From a virus, in the IMG/VR virus record IMGVR_UViG_3300022670_000083, positions 1 to 37,382 of that record: a stretch of DNA of 37,382 nucleotides; one strand, 5' to 3'. The notes beneath the pieces were generated by a model. That model ran no database searches, was not told the DNA's origin, and worked only from the letters and a program-made list of their open reading frames with translations. A program made the translations under genes and the position numbers. Below, piece after piece: positions 14,821 through 21,503 of the stretch. Numbering within the stretch: position 1 is the first letter of the stretch; every line of letters begins with the position of its first letter.

Positions 14821-16044
14821 TTAAGAAGTTGTACGAACTGCGAAATCAGGGTTTTGAGCTTTAACACCGTAAAGAATATCAAAACGATAAACTGTTTCGT
14901 CATCTGTGATGTTGTATTGACGTACTGCACGTATAGAGATATTACCAAAGCTTTCACGACTAGCGCTTGCTCCATCAGTAGGTAAATCTAAAGGAGCCAT
15001 TGCAAGAGTGATAGCATTCTGATGGAAAGCTAAGTTTTGCTTATGCTCTGCACCACCTGCACCAGTCTTAACTGTGATAACTGCACCATCTGCCGGTGCT
15101 GCTGTTACAGTTTGGAAAGGCCCACTTGTGATCATAGGTGGTGAGATTGTCAATGTAGCCGGACCAGTAGAAGCGCCAGAAGTTGCATCAACAGTAACCA
15201 CGAATGTTTGTAAATCACCTGTGTTTTTACGTGTTTTACGGTTAACTGAGTTTACACCTGCAATAGTAATTACATCACCAGCAAGTAAAATATCAGTAGT
15301 TGAATTTGTCCAACCATCAGTAATTAATGATTGAGTCCATGAGTCACCAGAAGCGTCATAGGTTACGTTCTGAGTTGCGCCATTAATCAATGGTGTACCA
15401 GTAGCGATACCAACAGTATGTAATGCTAAAGATTGATTTTCAAACAATTCAAACTTACTGTAGCGGCCAATTGAAGCTTCTTCGATAGCTTTAACTGCAA
15501 TCTCTGAAGGGAATACGTTCTGTAAACCATCAGCTAATGCAAGGGAAGCATCTTCATCGTAGAAAGCAGACCAACGAATATCCATTGGTACGCCAAGCTT
15601 AGTTAATACTTTAGCTGCTGCACCAACTGCTAAAAAGTTAGCAGGAGCAGTACCAGGAGTACCGACAAAATTACCGATTTGCTTATAAACTTCACCAATA
15701 TCAGTTTCAACTTGTTGTGCTAACTCTGCAGCAGCAGGGCGAACATAACGAGTAGTGAAATCCTCAACCTTTAAAGTTAAATCTTGAGATGTAATAGCAA
15801 AACCAACATGCTTACGCTTATCTAGCGTTACAGTTGCTGCTTTCTCTTCAACATCTTCTTTAACTAACGTTGCACCATCAGTTGCGGTGAACATAATAGG
15901 GCGGCGCACTTCAATACTTGCACCAACCTTGCGAAATTGACTGTCTAACTGACGATCAACCTTTGCGCCCATTTGAAGAGCGTTCATAAATTCTTTTAAC
16001 ATGATTCGAGTTACAAGACTCGTATTTTTAAACGTATTAGCCAT
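14821..16044 (-). CDS. Major capsid protein (P22 coat-like)
   Basis: 407 aa, immediately after the scaffold gene and followed by a terminator. The segment GDVITIAGVNSVNRKTRKNTGDLQTFVV and the C-terminal pattern resemble the P22-type coat. Confidence 0.8.
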   Translation of the reverse strand: MANTFKNTSLVTRIMLKEFMNALQMGAKVDRQLDSQFRKVGASIEVRRPIMFTATDGATLVKEDVEEKAATVTLDKRKHVGFAITSQDLTLKVEDFTTRYVRPAAAELAQQVETDIGEVYKQIGNFVGTPGTAPANFLAVGAAAKVLTKLGVPMDIRWSAFYDEDASLALADGLQNVFPSEIAVKAIEEASIGRYSKFELFENQSLALHTVGIATGTPLINGATQNVTYDASGDSWTQSLITDGWTNSTTDILLAGDVITIAGVNSVNRKTRKNTGDLQTFVVTVDATSGASTGPATLTISPPMITSGPFQTVTAAPADGAVITVKTGAGGAEHKQNLAFHQNAITLAMAPLDLPTDGASASRESFGNISIRAVRQYNITDDETVYRFDILYGVKAQNPDFAVRTTS

Positions 16045-16066
16045 TTTAGTTCCTTATGTCCCTTTC

Positions 16067-16873
16067 CTAGTTGTATTTACTCATCCACGCATCAATAGAC
16101 ATTTCATCATCTATCTTATCGCTTAACGAGCTACCTGCTGTTACAGGCTCTATAGGATCGGGCGCTGCACTTGTTTTAATTTCGGGTTTAACAGACATCT
16201 GCGCTGAAATACGTCCAATTTCTGCCATTGCTGCCATAGGTGTCATTCCTGCTAATGAATCAGCTTTATCCAAATGATTACCAAGATGATAAATCATCTC
16301 CGCGCCATTCTCTAAACTCATCATTGCACTAGCTACGCCTGGTGGTAGGTCTGGTATTGCATCGGCCTTTGCGTCAAAATCATCTTTACCTAAAGCGGAA
16401 ATCTGCTCATTAAATGAGTCAGTTAGTTTTTGCTGTTCGGCTTCTTGATTAATTTGCTTCTGTGCTGTTGCTTGTTTTGCTAACTCTACTTTAACTTGTT
16501 CCTGCACGTTATAACTAACATTAGCTTTATTAAAAGCATCTTCATCATAGTCGTGATCTTCAAGTTTCGGTTCTGTCAAAGCTGCGCTTTCGTTTAGCTT
16601 ATTAAGTTGAGCTTGCAAGTCATCAGCACGTTTATCGGCTAACTCTTGTTTACGTATTGCATCGTGTTTATCTGCTGTTACTTTATTGATGCGCTTTTGA
16701 AATCCGTCCTCTTTTGGCGTTTCTGCTTCGGTTGAGTCGGTTTTATTCGCATCTTCTACGGGGGCTGATTCCGTGGTTTGTATTTCCTCTGTCTTTTGTT
16801 CTAAGTCATGATCAATGGCTTCTTGAACAAACGCATCTAAAGGATCTAGCTGTGCAGCGGTTTGGTCTGTCAT
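16067..16873 (-). CDS. Scaffolding protein
   Basis: 268 aa, acidic, A/E/K/Q-rich and helical, located just upstream of the coat gene. Confidence 0.7.
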   Translation of the reverse strand: MTDQTAAQLDPLDAFVQEAIDHDLEQKTEEIQTTESAPVEDANKTDSTEAETPKEDGFQKRINKVTADKHDAIRKQELADKRADDLQAQLNKLNESAALTEPKLEDHDYDEDAFNKANVSYNVQEQVKVELAKQATAQKQINQEAEQQKLTDSFNEQISALGKDDFDAKADAIPDLPPGVASAMMSLENGAEMIYHLGNHLDKADSLAGMTPMAAMAEIGRISAQMSVKPEIKTSAAPDPIEPVTAGSSLSDKIDDEMSIDAWMSKYN

Positions 16874-16939
16874 TTATTACGCATCCTATAAGGAAGAATT
16901 TTAGCCGTTATTTAAAGGCATAACGTAAGCCCGTGGTCA

Positions 16940-16968
16940 ATTATACTAAATAATGGTTAACTTGACAA
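16940..16968 (-). promoter_or_regulatory. sigma70-type promoter for scaffold/coat genes (TTGTCA-N17-TATAAT)
   Basis: Minus strand: TTGTCA (16968..16963), 17-nt spacer, TATAAT (16945..16940). It is embedded in the 17-mer ATTTAGTATAATTGACC (16951..16935). Confidence 0.55.
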
Positions 16969-16983
16969 ATAATGTATTTTAGG

Positions 16984-17012
16984 TAATAAAAAACCACTCG
17001 TTAAAGTGGTTT
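16984..17012 (-). terminator. Intrinsic terminator closing the portal-scaffold moron
   Basis: Minus strand reads aaaccact-ttaacg-agtggttt followed by ttttatt: a perfect 8-bp stem plus a U-run. Confidence 0.7.
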
Positions 17013-17138
17013 GTGTGCTTCTAAGTGATCAACCCAACAATGCAATATCGTGAGTGTAAACTTATTCGGTATATGTTCACCATCAAAGAAAGTTATCCTA
17101 GCTGAGCCGTTAGCGTTTATCCTGATCCTTGGTTTCAT
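17001..17138 (-). CDS. Candidate 45-aa ORF, third gene of the moron (below the track cutoff)
   Basis: The ATG overlaps the upstream TGA (ATGA). Reads MKPRIRINANGSARITFFDGEHIPNKFTLTILHCWVDHLEAHKPL, with the stop codon in the terminator loop. No SD of its own. Confidence 0.3.
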   Translation of the reverse strand: MKPRIRINANGSARITFFDGEHIPNKFTLTILHCWVDHLEAHKPL

Positions 17139-17329
17139 AAATCACCATCTGGAAGCACTCTTTGATCGTCAATAATAACCCAACTAGAGTTATCTATTGG
17201 GTGTAATAAATACTCCTGCCTAACCTCTCCATTAGTCTCTAACTGCTGAATAATTACACCGTTAGCTTTAGCCTCTTTTAATACTTCTGCTCGCTTATGG
17301 GTTAGGTCGCTGGATTTATATGTTTTCAT
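17135..17329 (-). CDS. Phd/YefM-like (antitoxin-fold) small protein
   Basis: The N-terminus (MKTYKSSDLTHKRAEVLKEAKANGVIIQ) follows the Phd/YefM N-terminal pattern. TAATG overlap with the upstream ORF. Confidence 0.4.
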   Translation of the reverse strand: MKTYKSSDLTHKRAEVLKEAKANGVIIQQLETNGEVRQEYLLHPIDNSSWVIIDDQRVLPDGDL

Positions 17330-17682
17330 TAGTAATAAGCTCCTCTAATTAAATTTGACATTTGTTGTGCACCTATATTTCCCATGCCTTGTGCATAAGT
17401 ACCTAGTCCACCACATAAAGCGTTATTACTTTGCGTTTGTGCCATTGCCATTTGCTGAAAACCTAAAGCGCCGTGCTGAGTACCTCTATTTAATTGACTT
17501 TGATATAACGCAGATAACTGACGATCACGAGCTAATTTAGTGGCGGGATTCATAGTAGCAATAGATTTTACCTTCATTACTATTCTAGGCTTCTTGGCAT
17601 AACAACTAATAAAGCTTTGCTTCTTAGCGCCAAAGAACTTTAACTGTTCAGATAGTGAGCCTTTCTTTTCCCAATCAAACAT
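17329..17682 (-). CDS. Hypothetical 117-aa protein with Q/G/A/M-rich C-terminus (first gene of the moron)
   Basis: Track ORF 17329..17742 trimmed to the ATG at 17682 (AAGG upstream). The longer start lies upstream of the predicted transcription start. Confidence 0.5.
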   Translation of the reverse strand: MFDWEKKGSLSEQLKFFGAKKQSFISCYAKKPRIVMKVKSIATMNPATKLARDRQLSALYQSQLNRGTQHGALGFQQMAMAQTQSNNALCGGLGTYAQGMGNIGAQQMSNLIRGAYY

Positions 17683-17713
17683 TATTATTGCCTTAATTAA
17701 AATTAGTTTTAGT

Positions 17714-17742
17714 AATATAGTAAAATAAAAGGCATGTGTCAA
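17714..17742 (-). promoter_or_regulatory. sigma70-type promoter (TTGACA-N17-TATATT) for the moron
   Basis: Minus strand: TTGACA (17742..17737, inside the terminator loop), 17-nt spacer, TATATT (17719..17714). Confidence 0.5.
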
Positions 17743-17750
17743 ATGCCTTT
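17721..17750 (-). terminator. Intrinsic terminator after the portal gene
   Basis: Minus strand reads aaaggcat-ttgacac-atgccttt followed by tatttta, 7 nt after the portal stop. Confidence 0.6.
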
Positions 17751-17756
17751 AGTTAT

Positions 17757-19922
17757 TTAGATATTATCCTGCCCAACACTAGCGCTAGGTTGTTGAACCG
17801 TCAATCTTCTGGCGTTATCTGCTTCAATAGCTTGACCTTGAACTACAGCATCTTGAACTATACTTGCTGCTTGCTCAGTGTTTGGTCCTTCATCAATAGC
17901 TTGCTGACCTTCTTCCATAATATCTTGTTGCTTAATTCTGATATTGTGGTCTGCTTGCGTTAAAGGTATACCGGCCAATTGCTGTTTCTCATAAGCTTCT
18001 ATTAATGTTTTATAAGTATCAATAGTTGTTTGTTGTGCTTTAAGTTGTTTAGCTATTGTATCTGCATCTTGGTTTTCAATATCACTGATTAGTTTTTCAG
18101 TTTGTATCTGAATGTTTTCAGTAATAGCCTGCTGTTGTGGATCTGGTGCTTGTTCTTGGTTTAATCCTAAATCTTCAATCTCTTGCTCTGTTGGTTCAAT
18201 AATACCTTGAGCAATCATTTGCTTTCTAACACGCTTAGTAAGCTCTTTAGATTCAAGTATAGGTAAGTCTTTAGCGACTAAATCCATTGCCAACGCTTCA
18301 AACTGTGGAGACGATGCGATTAAATCAATAATCTGTTGTGCTGATTCTTGTCTTTGTGTTGCAAATGCTGGTCCTGATTCTGCTACTACGTCATATTTAC
18401 CCATAGATAAATCATTAACTAATACCGGCTTACCTGTTTGCTCGTCAATAACCTCTTCGTTAACTGTGTTTATTTCTACATTTTCAGTCTCGCCGTCTTG
18501 TTGCATGATGCGAACCTGTCTTGCAGTGTCATAAATACGAGGTATTAGGTCTACTAATATTTCTGCTGTGAATTCTTGAGACTTAACCAAATTATCAGTA
18601 AATATAAATGAGCCTCTATCACCTTGCCTTTCTTGTGCTTGGATAGCCTTTCCTGATTTCAACTCAGGATTAGTACCTATTGATGGTGGTTGCATACCTG
18701 TTACATGATATAAATCCATTGAAGCTTGTTGTATTTGCTGAATGAATGCGCCTTGTACTGCTGGCGCTCCACCTCTTTGCGGCATACCTGGCGCTTTAGG
18801 GTCTGAGTTATAAAATAAGAAAGGTACATTGCTACTGTTAAAGTTTCTTAATTGCGCTTCATGCCCTTTTGCTTGTGCTGGTGTAATCCATACGGGATCT
18901 TTAGGTGTTAAGGCTGCAGTTTCAATAGCTGAACTTGTGGCATAGTTATAAATGCGGTTAGCATCTTTGGCAAACCTTACAACTCCGCGAGTGTATGTTT
19001 GACCTTCGATGTGACTTTGACGACCGTACATAGGAATTAACGGAATAAACTTACCGGCCCATTCTTTAGCATCTTCTAAAACTTCTGCACCATCCATTAA
19101 ATACATCTCAACTTTGTGAGACTTAACGGATACAGTCTTTTTAACTGTTATGCCATTAGCTTTCATTTCATCTAATACGCTTTGCTCTTCGTCTTGATCA
19201 ATGATTCTACCATCAGATAGTAAAGCTATGTTTTTAGTTATAGGAGTCTTAACCCAGTATTCAGCAACACGTACAGTATTCTCATTAACCCAACCATTAC
19301 AAGCGTTGTTATTGAATTTCTCTTGCGCCCAACCTGATATAACAGATTTAGGGTAACGCTCTTTAAACTCTTCGGTAGGCATATCAACAGTAACAAAGCC
19401 CCACATTGAATCTCTTTTATCATATTCTTTAGCTGCATCATCAAGCCATAGTGAGGTTGTAGCAGTATTCAAACCTTTAATTTTGATAGTCTGAATAAAT
19501 GGATCATCTTCGTCTAACTCTGTAATTACACGCCACCCACCAAAGCCACCGTTAACCACTTCATCGAATGCAGTATCATAAGCATTGCTTGCCTTGCTTA
19601 CTGATTCAATATTTCTGATTAAGCCCGTCATTACTTTGGCGGTATCTTCTGTAGCACCACCGCTAACAGGCCTTATCTTGATGTCTGTACGGTTTTGACG
19701 TTGATCACCAATCAATTGATCTATTGCACCGGCTACCCGATTAATGGTAAACCTTGGGCGATTCTTGCGCTTAGTCTTTGCGCCCTCATCCCATTGGCCA
19801 TCTTCTGTTTGTGCGAATTTAATATCTTCAACGGCTAATTTGCGTTGAGAGCGCTCTTTCTTTTCTACTCGCTCAAATCGTTTGATTGCCAGCGCGTGAA
19901 TCTTTTCTTTTTTGTTAGCCAT
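17757..19922 (-). CDS. Portal protein (P22-size class)
   Basis: 721 aa, directly downstream of TerL, with a long helical Q/E-rich C-terminal barrel-like tail. Confidence 0.85.
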   Translation of the reverse strand: MANKKEKIHALAIKRFERVEKKERSQRKLAVEDIKFAQTEDGQWDEGAKTKRKNRPRFTINRVAGAIDQLIGDQRQNRTDIKIRPVSGGATEDTAKVMTGLIRNIESVSKASNAYDTAFDEVVNGGFGGWRVITELDEDDPFIQTIKIKGLNTATTSLWLDDAAKEYDKRDSMWGFVTVDMPTEEFKERYPKSVISGWAQEKFNNNACNGWVNENTVRVAEYWVKTPITKNIALLSDGRIIDQDEEQSVLDEMKANGITVKKTVSVKSHKVEMYLMDGAEVLEDAKEWAGKFIPLIPMYGRQSHIEGQTYTRGVVRFAKDANRIYNYATSSAIETAALTPKDPVWITPAQAKGHEAQLRNFNSSNVPFLFYNSDPKAPGMPQRGGAPAVQGAFIQQIQQASMDLYHVTGMQPPSIGTNPELKSGKAIQAQERQGDRGSFIFTDNLVKSQEFTAEILVDLIPRIYDTARQVRIMQQDGETENVEINTVNEEVIDEQTGKPVLVNDLSMGKYDVVAESGPAFATQRQESAQQIIDLIASSPQFEALAMDLVAKDLPILESKELTKRVRKQMIAQGIIEPTEQEIEDLGLNQEQAPDPQQQAITENIQIQTEKLISDIENQDADTIAKQLKAQQTTIDTYKTLIEAYEKQQLAGIPLTQADHNIRIKQQDIMEEGQQAIDEGPNTEQAASIVQDAVVQGQAIEADNARRLTVQQPSASVGQDNI

Positions 19923-19925
19923 TGT

Positions 19926-21503
19926 TTACCATTCCGAAGTAAAGTTAATTTCTTGAACCTGATTATCTTCAAGGTCGCCGCTAATATTCATTTGACCGAA
20001 CTGTCTAAAAGCATCTGCACACTCTGAATGAACATCATGAACAGGTTGATCTGTAAACCTTCCTGTCGTGTTATTCCATCTTTTTCGGTAAGAGTCTAAA
20101 TGTATTATACCATCTTTACAGCCTACCTCGTCAAACCAGCATGTAGCAAACGAATCTCTCGTTGCTTGTATGCCGTGGGATATCTCGCTAACCCTTGGTA
20201 CAATCTCTATATTTTTAAGTCCTAAATTACTAAGGGCATCAGACGGGGATATATTAACAACCTCGCCTTGCCTTTCATGGTTGCCATCATGAGGTAAGAA
20301 ATGAGTACCCCAAACGTAATCAAGTTTATTCATTTGACTAACGTAATACTTGTAAGGCTCGCCCCATCCTTCAATGTAACCTATGAAATTATCTTTTTGC
20401 CCTATTTTTTGATGTAACCATATGCCTGTTCCGTCACTATTTCCTATATCCCAAAAAGTATTTACGGGATACCCTGGTCGATAAGGGACGGTTGTAATTC
20501 TTTCATCTTTGCGAACCTTAGTCATTTGCACAGTATAATAACAACCCTCTTTAGACTTCTGAAAAGCCTCTTTAGGGGTGCTAGGGTATTCCTGCCACAT
20601 CTTTTCTTCTTCGCCGGTAAACTCTGAATCTCTAGTCATTACCCACCATGCACGCTGATTAATATCAATTAAGCATTTAGCTTCACCCTCTATTTTATCA
20701 AAATACTGATGGTCTTTAGGTGTGATAATAACATCATCAGGGTTTGTACTGTATTTACTTTCACCGTGCCAAGGATAGAAATGAAACTTATAATCTTTAG
20801 GGTTTAGCTTCTTTCCCGATAACATTAAAGCCTCTGCTCTCTTTGATATCTTATAGAAATGCCCGTCTTGACCTTCTGCCGTTGATTCAATAAAAACCAT
20901 ACCATTTGTAGGTACAGCAGGAATTGAGCCGGTAATAACCTCGTCAGCCCTATCTGGAAACTTAGCGCATATCTTTCCAAACTCTGATATATGCAAATAC
21001 TGTAGCGTTCCTGATCTTGCTGATGTCGCTACCCTTATTGAACTGTTGTTATGAGAAAATAATAATTCACTCGCGCTATCTCTTTCTAATGGCATAGCTG
21101 CTTTTAATGATGGTGGTAAATTGTTATAGGCAAAATAAACCTTGTCTCTGAATATAGTCTTTGCCACATCTTCACTTTGTGCTATTACTGCCGCCCTGAC
21201 ATTTGCTTTAAACAGGCAGCAGTCAAGAAAGAATATCTCAATTAGTGTAGTAAAGCCTAATTGACGGGCTTTTAATATATCATTACGGGTATGTAGATTT
21301 GATAGTAAATCTAGTTGCGGATCGTTCGGTATAAAATCAGCAACAAGTGACTCTTCATCATCATCACCCTTTATCATTATCTTGTATAACTGGCCGCTTG
21401 TTAATCGCCACCACGGATCTGCAAGACACTCTTTAAACTCGTCAGCATCTTTAGGTATCCTAGTGTCTCTTTCGCGAATAGCTCTAACCATTCGAAGGGC
21501 CAA
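19926..21503 (-). CDS. terL: Terminase large subunit
   Basis: 525 aa. Walker-A-like KARQLGFTT, a C-terminal nuclease-like region, and a position between TerS and the portal. Confidence 0.9.
   Translation of the reverse strand: MALRMVRAIRERDTRIPKDADEFKECLADPWWRLTSGQLYKIMIKGDDDEESLVADFIPNDPQLDLLSNLHTRNDILKARQLGFTTLIEIFFLDCCLFKANVRAAVIAQSEDVAKTIFRDKVYFAYNNLPPSLKAAMPLERDSASELLFSHNNSSIRVATSARSGTLQYLHISEFGKICAKFPDRADEVITGSIPAVPTNGMVFIESTAEGQDGHFYKISKRAEALMLSGKKLNPKDYKFHFYPWHGESKYSTNPDDVIITPKDHQYFDKIEGEAKCLIDINQRAWWVMTRDSEFTGEEEKMWQEYPSTPKEAFQKSKEGCYYTVQMTKVRKDERITTVPYRPGYPVNTFWDIGNSDGTGIWLHQKIGQKDNFIGYIEGWGEPYKYYVSQMNKLDYVWGTHFLPHDGNHERQGEVVNISPSDALSNLGLKNIEIVPRVSEISHGIQATRDSFATCWFDEVGCKDGIIHLDSYRKRWNNTTGRFTDQPVHDVHSECADAFRQFGQMNISGDLEDNQVQEINFTSEW

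Follow-up and report, generated by a model that had tools for sequence, protein, structure and literature searches.

The portal and scaffold genes of the virus recorded as IMGVR_UViG_3300022670_000083 in IMG/VR are separated by what is, on balance, a mobile cassette of ORFans inserted in a recombination hot spot. The record is a complete viral contig of 37,382 bp with 144-bp direct terminal repeats, and was analysed at its full length (hereafter the window). On its minus strand, which carries the cassette and the head genes described below, the gene order is terS, terL (19926-21503), portal, three small open reading frames (ORFs), scaffold and coat. The three ORFs were designated o117, o64 and o45 after the number of amino acids (aa) that they encode. 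The cassette resembles both the elements known as PeSLs and the genes known as morons, and we think it is organised around o64, a solo gene whose product is probably self-repressing, partner-binding or both.

The cassette starts 6 nt past the portal stop codon with a 5′ boundary hairpin (17721..17750; stem AAAGGCAT/ATGCCTTT, loop TTGACAC, then a T-run), in which 8 pairs form over 17750..17728 and the loop holds the −35 box of a promoter, TTGACA-N17-TATATT (17714..17742), that matches 11 of 12 consensus positions. Judged by its sequence, the hairpin is intrinsic-terminator-like and would insulate the cassette from portal transcription. It is followed by a conserved leader, ACTAAAACTAATTTTAATTAAGGcaataata (17683..17713), with an inverted repeat, (A)TTAAAA-CTAA-TTTTAA(T), at 17713..17696 (about +1 to +18) and an AAGG Shine-Dalgarno sequence 8 nt before the ATG. 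The first ORF, o117 (17329..17682, 117 aa), overlaps the middle ORF and core gene of the cassette, o64 (17135..17329, 64 aa), through TAATG, and o64 overlaps the last ORF, o45 (17001..17138, 45 aa), through ATGA. The final codons and the stop of o45 lie inside the 3′ boundary terminator (16984..17012; stem AAACCACT/AGTGGTTT with pairing over 17012..16991, the TAA stop codon in the loop and a T-run), next to which is the conserved sequence TTTTTTATTRCC. A TTG at 17742 was considered as the start of o117 and ruled out because it falls within the −35 box. Near-consensus sigma-70 sites numbered just three in the 37-kb genome, two of them being the promoters of the cassette and of the scaffold gene. 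The GC content of the cassette is 36.2%, that of the genome 37.3%. The initial annotation of this DNA had described an autonomous unit at this place, and everything in that description was recovered, from the coordinates and the overlaps of the genes to the two promoters and two terminators; the unit runs from its own promoter through its own terminator.

The same combination of hairpin, promoter and leader is found in 18 or more independent viral contigs. An alignment of 18 loci revealed compensatory changes in seven of the eight pairs of the 5′ hairpin stem, with 90.3% of cells able to pair; the observed covariation score was reached by none of 500 shuffles, and slid controls scored far lower. 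The TTGACA of the loop was invariant, the −10 region and the leader were invariant or nearly so, and the leader columns stayed conserved whichever ORF came first. Every occupied site opens alike, with the TTGACA-loop hairpin, then TTTTATTTTACTATATTAYTAAAACTAATTTTAATTAAGG, then a first ORF of any type. The inverted repeat reads ATTAAAA-CTAA-TTTTAAT in most loci, this genome having one mismatch in the left arm. The promoter was kept in all occupied relatives, including phages with portals only 23–30% identical, in which the 5′ element is almost identical (for example in contigs L038, L043, L050 and L069; related contigs are given by L numbers throughout); the leaders of this genome and L038 are near-identical, and their portals share just 28%. 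In a pattern scan of the whole collection, each true copy of the element had an o64 homologue 0.3–1.2 kb downstream, and one new, divergent o64-linked case was added (L088). Ten further matches, in contigs of 43–158 kb, represented one unrelated conserved sequence with neither a hairpin nor a nearby o64 and were rejected, as were seven more, unrelated and likewise lacking a hairpin. The former, a near-identical 90-nt sequence (…TTGACAACGATATTTTTTTTAAGTAGTTTTGCCTAAAACTAATTTTATATG…), is carried by ten large contigs of viruses, a single sample being the source of nearly all; they include L082, L084, L086, L087, L089, L093-L095 and L103. At the other boundary, the 3′ terminator stems of L005, L006, L011, L012, L027, L031 and L060 differ from one another yet pair, and the terminator is absent from truly empty relatives. 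The cassette is a unit of conserved, portable ends and an interchangeable interior.

Presence and absence were compared in 32 viral contigs recruited through the portal and 37 recruited through o64, onto all of which six proteins were mapped. Among the 28 informative relatives, with portals 55–81% identical, the portal–scaffold junction was empty in 17, held an o64 homologue in nine and carried other cargo in two, namely an HNH endonuclease in one relative and an ORF of the ‘MNN’ family described below in another. The 17 empty junctions had no ORF and a gap of 100–255 bp. Comparison with relatives, which the initial annotation had suggested, thus showed that the insertion is optional and parts two genes that lie side by side in close relatives. 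On the portal tree, the presence of o64 requires at least five gains or losses when only well-supported branches are counted, and o64 identity (48–96%) was uncorrelated with portal identity (23–81%). Two relatives retain deletion scars: at L012:6151-6240 an o45 homologue reduced to its 3′ half (WLKGNQFRLTILSCWLDFLDKNKTP), together with the terminator, is fused directly to the portal stop, and at L008:6145-6200 the terminator alone is left. Homologues of o64 were also located between portal and scaffold in phages with portals 23–33% identical, and likewise in P0225, which carries a 41%-identical member of the o64 family; in L039 and L067 the cassette lies before terS instead of at the portal–scaffold junction.

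The empty genomes also settle the origin of the promoter that follows the cassette, TTGTCA-N17-TATAAT (16940..16968; 11 of 12 consensus positions). It had been read as a fresh promoter restarting the scaffold and coat genes after the insertion. Where the junction is empty, this scaffold promoter (TTTGTCA...TAGTATAAT) comes immediately after the portal stop, together with a conserved leader. Its presence at that place in relatives without a cassette (L007, L010, L015, L019 and L020) means that the promoter is ancestral; it was not brought by the insertion and does not count as cargo.

The constant gene of the cassette, o64, belongs to a virus-only protein family. A search of 5.8 billion sequences identified 171 homologues, all unnamed and almost all from marine metagenomes or viral contigs, and in a set of 1.84 billion representatives the family falls into at least 162 clusters when grouped at 50% identity. 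A profile search of 185,579 prokaryote genomes found the gene in neither bacteria nor archaea. Residues 1–42 are nearly invariant within the close family. Codon differences fall mainly at the third position (550, compared with 274 at the first and 237 at the second), and conservation therefore acts at the level of the protein; o64 is under purifying selection. The C-terminal tails of 210 sequences, by comparison, fell into 120 or more clusters, and some modules recur; the tail type of this genome, ‘vIIDDxxVLxxGDL’, is common to six proteins.

The initial annotation had likened the N-terminus of o64 to that of Phd/YefM antitoxins, and structure prediction bears this out. The AlphaFold2 model (predicted local distance difference test score, pLDDT, of 87) has a beta-alpha-beta-beta arrangement over residues 2–42, with strands at 2–5, 25–30 and 36–42 and helices at 8–23. 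In a Foldseek search against the PDB its top matches were N-domains of Phd/YefM proteins (4zlx, 2a6q, 3hs2 and 3hry; probability up to 0.96), with a root-mean-square deviation of 1.8–2.8 Å over 44–47 columns and TM scores of 0.54–0.62 normalised to the target, and most of the top 16 were Phd or YefM N-domains. Against BFVD, two members of the family itself came first, followed by phage proteins named ‘Antitoxin’ and ‘PhDYefM’. Furthermore, the Pfam family PF02604 (PhdYeFM_antitox) matched 12 of the 41 most distant o64 members at E≤1 (best 6.6e-4), although the o64 family stays below its curated cut-off of 29.8 bits. Many members carry a helix motif, ‘...vL.s.eeYe.l’, past strand 3; the motif ‘vL.s.eEYe.l’ in this place is one that we take to be typical of Phd/YefM. 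Profiles of the o64 and o117 families gave chance matches alone against PDB sequences. According to these predictions, o64 represents a branch of the Phd/YefM fold that is divergent, confined to viruses and, by the curated criterion, outside PF02604.

The remaining genes of the cassette vary. The N-terminus of the o117 product carries a conserved basic motif, L.EQLKFFGAKK..FISCYAKKPRI; the protein is also predicted to form a long helix and has a tail rich in Q, G, A and M, whose GxxxG-like spacing resembles a glycine zipper. Its 15 homologues align over the N-terminal 35 aa and have variable tails; its AlphaFold2 model (pLDDT 67; predicted template modelling score 0.24) contains helices at 4–16 and 46–89, a disordered tail and no compact fold, and no match was obtained in Pfam, PHROG, PADLOC or the PDB. 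For o45, no match was found in the search of 5.8 billion proteins or in any family library, and full-length homologues were detected only in L011/L048 (49 aa) and L071 (46 aa). The commonest neighbour of o64 in relatives, absent here, is the upstream ‘MNN...EKLLRAFIEA’ family, which overlaps o64 through ATGA in about 25 loci; its members (for instance L038:3685-4014, L031:6650-6952 and L013:5127-5426) share a conserved N-terminus (‘MNN.EKLLRAFIEA.G’), vary in the remainder, range from 45 to 179 aa and gave no family matches. Downstream of o64, relatives carry a 52-aa membrane protein, one of several families of 61–75-aa ORFs, or nothing.

The ends of the last ORF recur as well. The N-terminus of o45, MKPRIR, and its terminator-embedded C-terminus, K-T/P-P/L-stop, are found in unrelated last ORFs, which hints that the shared ends are recombination joints. 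The sharing of MKPRIR(I/V) and K-T/P-P-stop extends from 17121-17138 of the window to L005:6776, L059, L070 and L071:4752, and the motif KKPRI also occurs inside the o117 family.

Taken together, the data lead us to the following explanation. The slot bounded by the portal stop codon and the ancestral promoter of the scaffold gene would be a hot spot for recombination. The stem-loop at its entrance would end portal transcription, and the same loop would supply the −35 box of the cassette promoter; given this element at the 5′ end and a terminator at the 3′ end, host RNA polymerase would be expected to transcribe the three genes independently of the late operon. The constant core would consist of the promoter element and o64, with o117 and o45 as interchangeable ORFan cargo. 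By analogy with type II antitoxins, the N-domain of o64 may dimerise and bind the inverted repeat at the transcription start, and so autoregulate the cassette, and its hypervariable tail may bind a partner encoded elsewhere, possibly a host toxin or defence effector. The basis for proposing the inverted repeat as a candidate operator is circumstantial, namely the invariance of the repeat and the strict co-occurrence of the leader with o64.

An antitoxin-like protein coupled to very small ORFs may call to mind a toxin–antitoxin (TA) module, and the initial annotation had suggested such a pairing of o64 with o45. In this explanation o64 would be the antitoxin of a type II system and o45, or o117 with its glycine-zipper-like tail, an unrecognised small toxin, which would suit the antitoxin fold of o64, its Phd/YefM layout of conserved N-terminus and variable C-terminus, and its coupling to o45 (ATGA) and o117 (TAATG). 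The pairing did not hold up. Outside this genome, homologues of o45 are confined to two contigs (L011/L048 and L071), in which one or two ORFs separate them from o64; o117 accompanies o64 in a minority of loci and occurs without an adjacent o64 in L007 and L023, at a second hot spot; and o64 is the last or sole gene in L028, L031 and L064-66. Across 46 loci the downstream neighbour of o64 was variable or absent, and ORF lists and gene-order maps showed the same tail type with different neighbours and vice versa. No adjacent cognate toxin gene of the Doc/Fic or YoeB/RelE/ParE type was found in the 46 loci, and searches of Pfam, PHROG and PADLOC identified no toxin or defence domain in any cassette locus; for the three ORFs and seven neighbour families they returned only the HNH domain of relatives and a weak C-terminal match to phrog_2585. 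Nor does o45 resemble a type I toxin, because it is not hydrophobic. The evidence says that the cassette holds no TA pair, and we regard such a module as quite improbable; the cassette reveals no new TA system. A further question is whether o45, and possibly o117, are genes at all or a spacer retained by recombination around o64 as the only functional gene. That o45 appeared in no protein search, and so shows no sign of being represented in public gene calls, has few homologues and has an end dictated by the terminator sequence would fit. Against this, the homologues in L011 and L071, about 46% identical, preserve its frame, length (45–49 aa) and motif F.LTIL.CW...L, for which reason o45 is probably a real gene, and o117 has 15 homologues, the conserved N-terminal motif and a good Shine-Dalgarno site; the spacer explanation is the least credible of those considered here.

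The position of the cassette among head genes could alternatively mean that the three ORFs encode non-essential accessory proteins of head assembly or of the virion, such as a portal or scaffold chaperone or an internal protein. The occurrence of o64 at the portal–scaffold position even in phages with portals 23–33% identical, and in P0225, is compatible with such a role, as is the long helix and disordered tail of o117, which recall certain scaffold or ejection proteins. Even so, a role in structure or assembly is improbable, because most close relatives lack these genes: they are missing from 17 of 28, in which the head genes are otherwise collinear. The location of the cassette before terS in L039 and L067, the terminators that apparently insulate it from the late operon and the predicted fold of o64, that of a DNA-binding/antitoxin domain, also argue against it. 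The main competitor of our explanation differs in the role given to o64, which would be purely an orphan antitoxin used in counter-defence, neutralising host toxins or abortive-infection effectors through its tail and neither binding DNA nor regulating itself, the leader serving merely for strong early expression. In its favour are the hypervariable, modular tails, the restriction of the family to viruses (absent from 185,579 prokaryote genomes), the host sigma-70-type promoter and the solo Phd/YefM-like ‘antitoxins’ annotated in other marine phages in BFVD, and there is precedent in phages for counter-defence by orphan antitoxin-like genes (PMC11825919). We consider it rather unlikely. The near-invariance of residues 1–42 exceeds what a mere dimerisation scaffold would need, the strict link to one promoter and leader suggests that another conserved ligand exists, and no homologous bacterial antitoxin that could have been the source of a capture was found in the same prokaryote genomes.

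Several known systems can be compared with the cassette as we interpret it. PeSLs (promoter-early stem-loops), known from T4-like phages (Arbiol et al., 2010, PMC2839356; Comeau et al., 2014, PMC4122927), are terminator/promoter cassettes through which ORFans are shuffled. As predicted from the sequence, the element described here likewise combines a strong sigma-70-type promoter and a stem-loop terminator with a Shine-Dalgarno site and start codon at its 3′ end; both flank ORFans that vary in close relatives by insertion, deletion or replacement, and both offer about 60–100 bp of conservation as a substrate for homologous recombination. The differences are that PeSLs belong to T4-like myoviruses, whereas the present genome is that of a podovirus with a P22-like head; that the −35 box here lies in the hairpin loop and the 3′ boundary is a different terminator; and that the element is always found with one gene, o64. 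Its activities are predictions from sequence.

Morons are reportedly a feature of lambdoid and P22-like phages, as described in 2000 by Juhala and colleagues and by Hendrix and colleagues. Such genes are expressed from the repressed prophage and often depart in base composition from the phage that carries them. The cassette shares with them a promoter and terminator of its own, a position between genes that are adjacent in relatives, and varying content in a fixed slot. It differs in that no sign of lysogeny or prophage expression was found, its base composition is not distinct from that of the genome, and its boundaries are themselves conserved mobile sequences. The ‘moron architecture’ of the initial annotation is apt as far as the insulated, optional insertion is concerned, whereas prophage expression is conjectural, because the ORFs scanned included no integrase and the 185,579 prokaryote genomes contained no copy.

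In relation to Phd/YefM proteins (PF02604; PDB 4zlx, 3hs2 and 2a6q), o64 has the same beta-alpha-beta-beta N-domain with conserved N-terminus and variable C-terminal tail and is likewise a small gene in an operon of overlapping genes, many of its family keeping the helix motif after strand 3. The family is set apart by scores below the PF02604 threshold, by its confinement to viruses and by the lack of Doc, YoeB, RelE, ParE or any other conserved neighbour. With orphan counter-defence genes, such as that for the anti-DarTG1 protein of T4-like phages (PMC11825919), the cassette has in common an antitoxin-like gene standing alone in a variable region of a lytic phage; those genes encode DarG-like enzymes with a demonstrated target, whereas o64 has a predicted Phd/YefM-like fold.

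Some observations weigh against a mobile, self-regulated cassette with a Phd/YefM-like core. PeSLs are present in dozens of copies per genome, in hyperplastic regions, whereas a search of this genome for a second copy of the promoter element found none, leaving a single copy. The Foldseek E-values for o64 are weak (0.1–1), because the domain is small (about 45 residues). PF02604 was not matched by o64 in hmmscan at E≤1, nor by a six-frame search of the genome at E≤10. The o64 protein of this genome lacks the canonical Phd/YefM helix after strand 3, in place of which it has a short, beta-hairpin-like tail. Finally, the candidate operator is AT-rich and carries the left-arm mismatch in this genome, and conservation of the leader could instead serve translation or mRNA stability.

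The genome that carries the cassette probably belongs to a virulent marine podophage with a P22-like head. The head genes comprise a P22-type portal gene (17757..19922; Pfam P22_portal, 2e-163; phrog_156, 2e-130), a scaffold gene (16067..16873; Pfam Phage-scaffold, 2.9e-08; phrog_8865, 4.4e-38) and a P22-type coat gene (14821..16044; Pfam P22_CoatProtein, 2e-46), and the early region includes Sak, SSB, NinB and NinG-like genes. The closest cultured phages by portal, Vibrio phage VvAW1 and Thalassomonas phage BA3, are just 34–37% identical; in both, the portal is followed by a gap of about 75–100 bp and then directly by scaffold. The GenBank phages in INPHARED gave no match by DNA and none by tblastn with o64 or o117, and no cultured relative carrying either gene was found among them.

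Three further features of the region were recorded. Just downstream of the scaffold promoter, the conserved 5′ leader of the scaffold mRNA (16906..16931) can form two interleaved helices, GGC/GCC and CGTTAT/ATAACG, with pseudoknot topology. Over 19 loci, 99.4% of cells pair, 53 cells are compensatory and none of 500 shuffles matched the observed result; a search of positions 16000-18500 against Rfam identified no family, including for this structure. Scaffold autoregulation is known for gene 8 of P22, and the structure might have a role in mRNA stability or in autoregulation of the scaffold. A second hot spot for the o117, MNN and o64 families lies upstream of the Ig-like and terS genes (L007:1037-1782, L023:102-700, L039:3300-4400 and L067:1900-3400). 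Lastly, genes for HNH endonucleases of the homing type occupy the portal–scaffold slot at L026:6200-6772 and L031:5695-6279 (HNH_3, 2.7e-10; phrog_99, 2e-36), in L031 interrupting the conserved leader, and homing by these enzymes could help to spread adjoining cargo.

A bolder extension is possible, if tentative: the hairpin-promoter and o64 may form a portable, self-regulated platform that moves between unrelated marine podophages by homologous recombination and takes changing ORFan cargo along, the tails of o64 neutralising varied host toxins or abortive-infection (Abi) effectors. If that were true, o64 would belong to a counter-defence family that is widespread in lytic marine phages and as yet uncharacterised. 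In practical terms, the cassette yields a compact natural promoter/terminator/leader part and a set of small proteins. To our knowledge, T4-like myoviruses are so far the only phages for which composite terminator/promoter shuffling elements have been described. If our interpretation is correct, such elements would operate also in small marine podophages with P22-like heads, where they are tied to one conserved small protein, and o64 would define a virus-only family of solo Phd/YefM-like proteins, with at least 162 clusters at 50% identity, whose modular tails make its members candidates for autoregulators or anti-toxin counter-defence factors.

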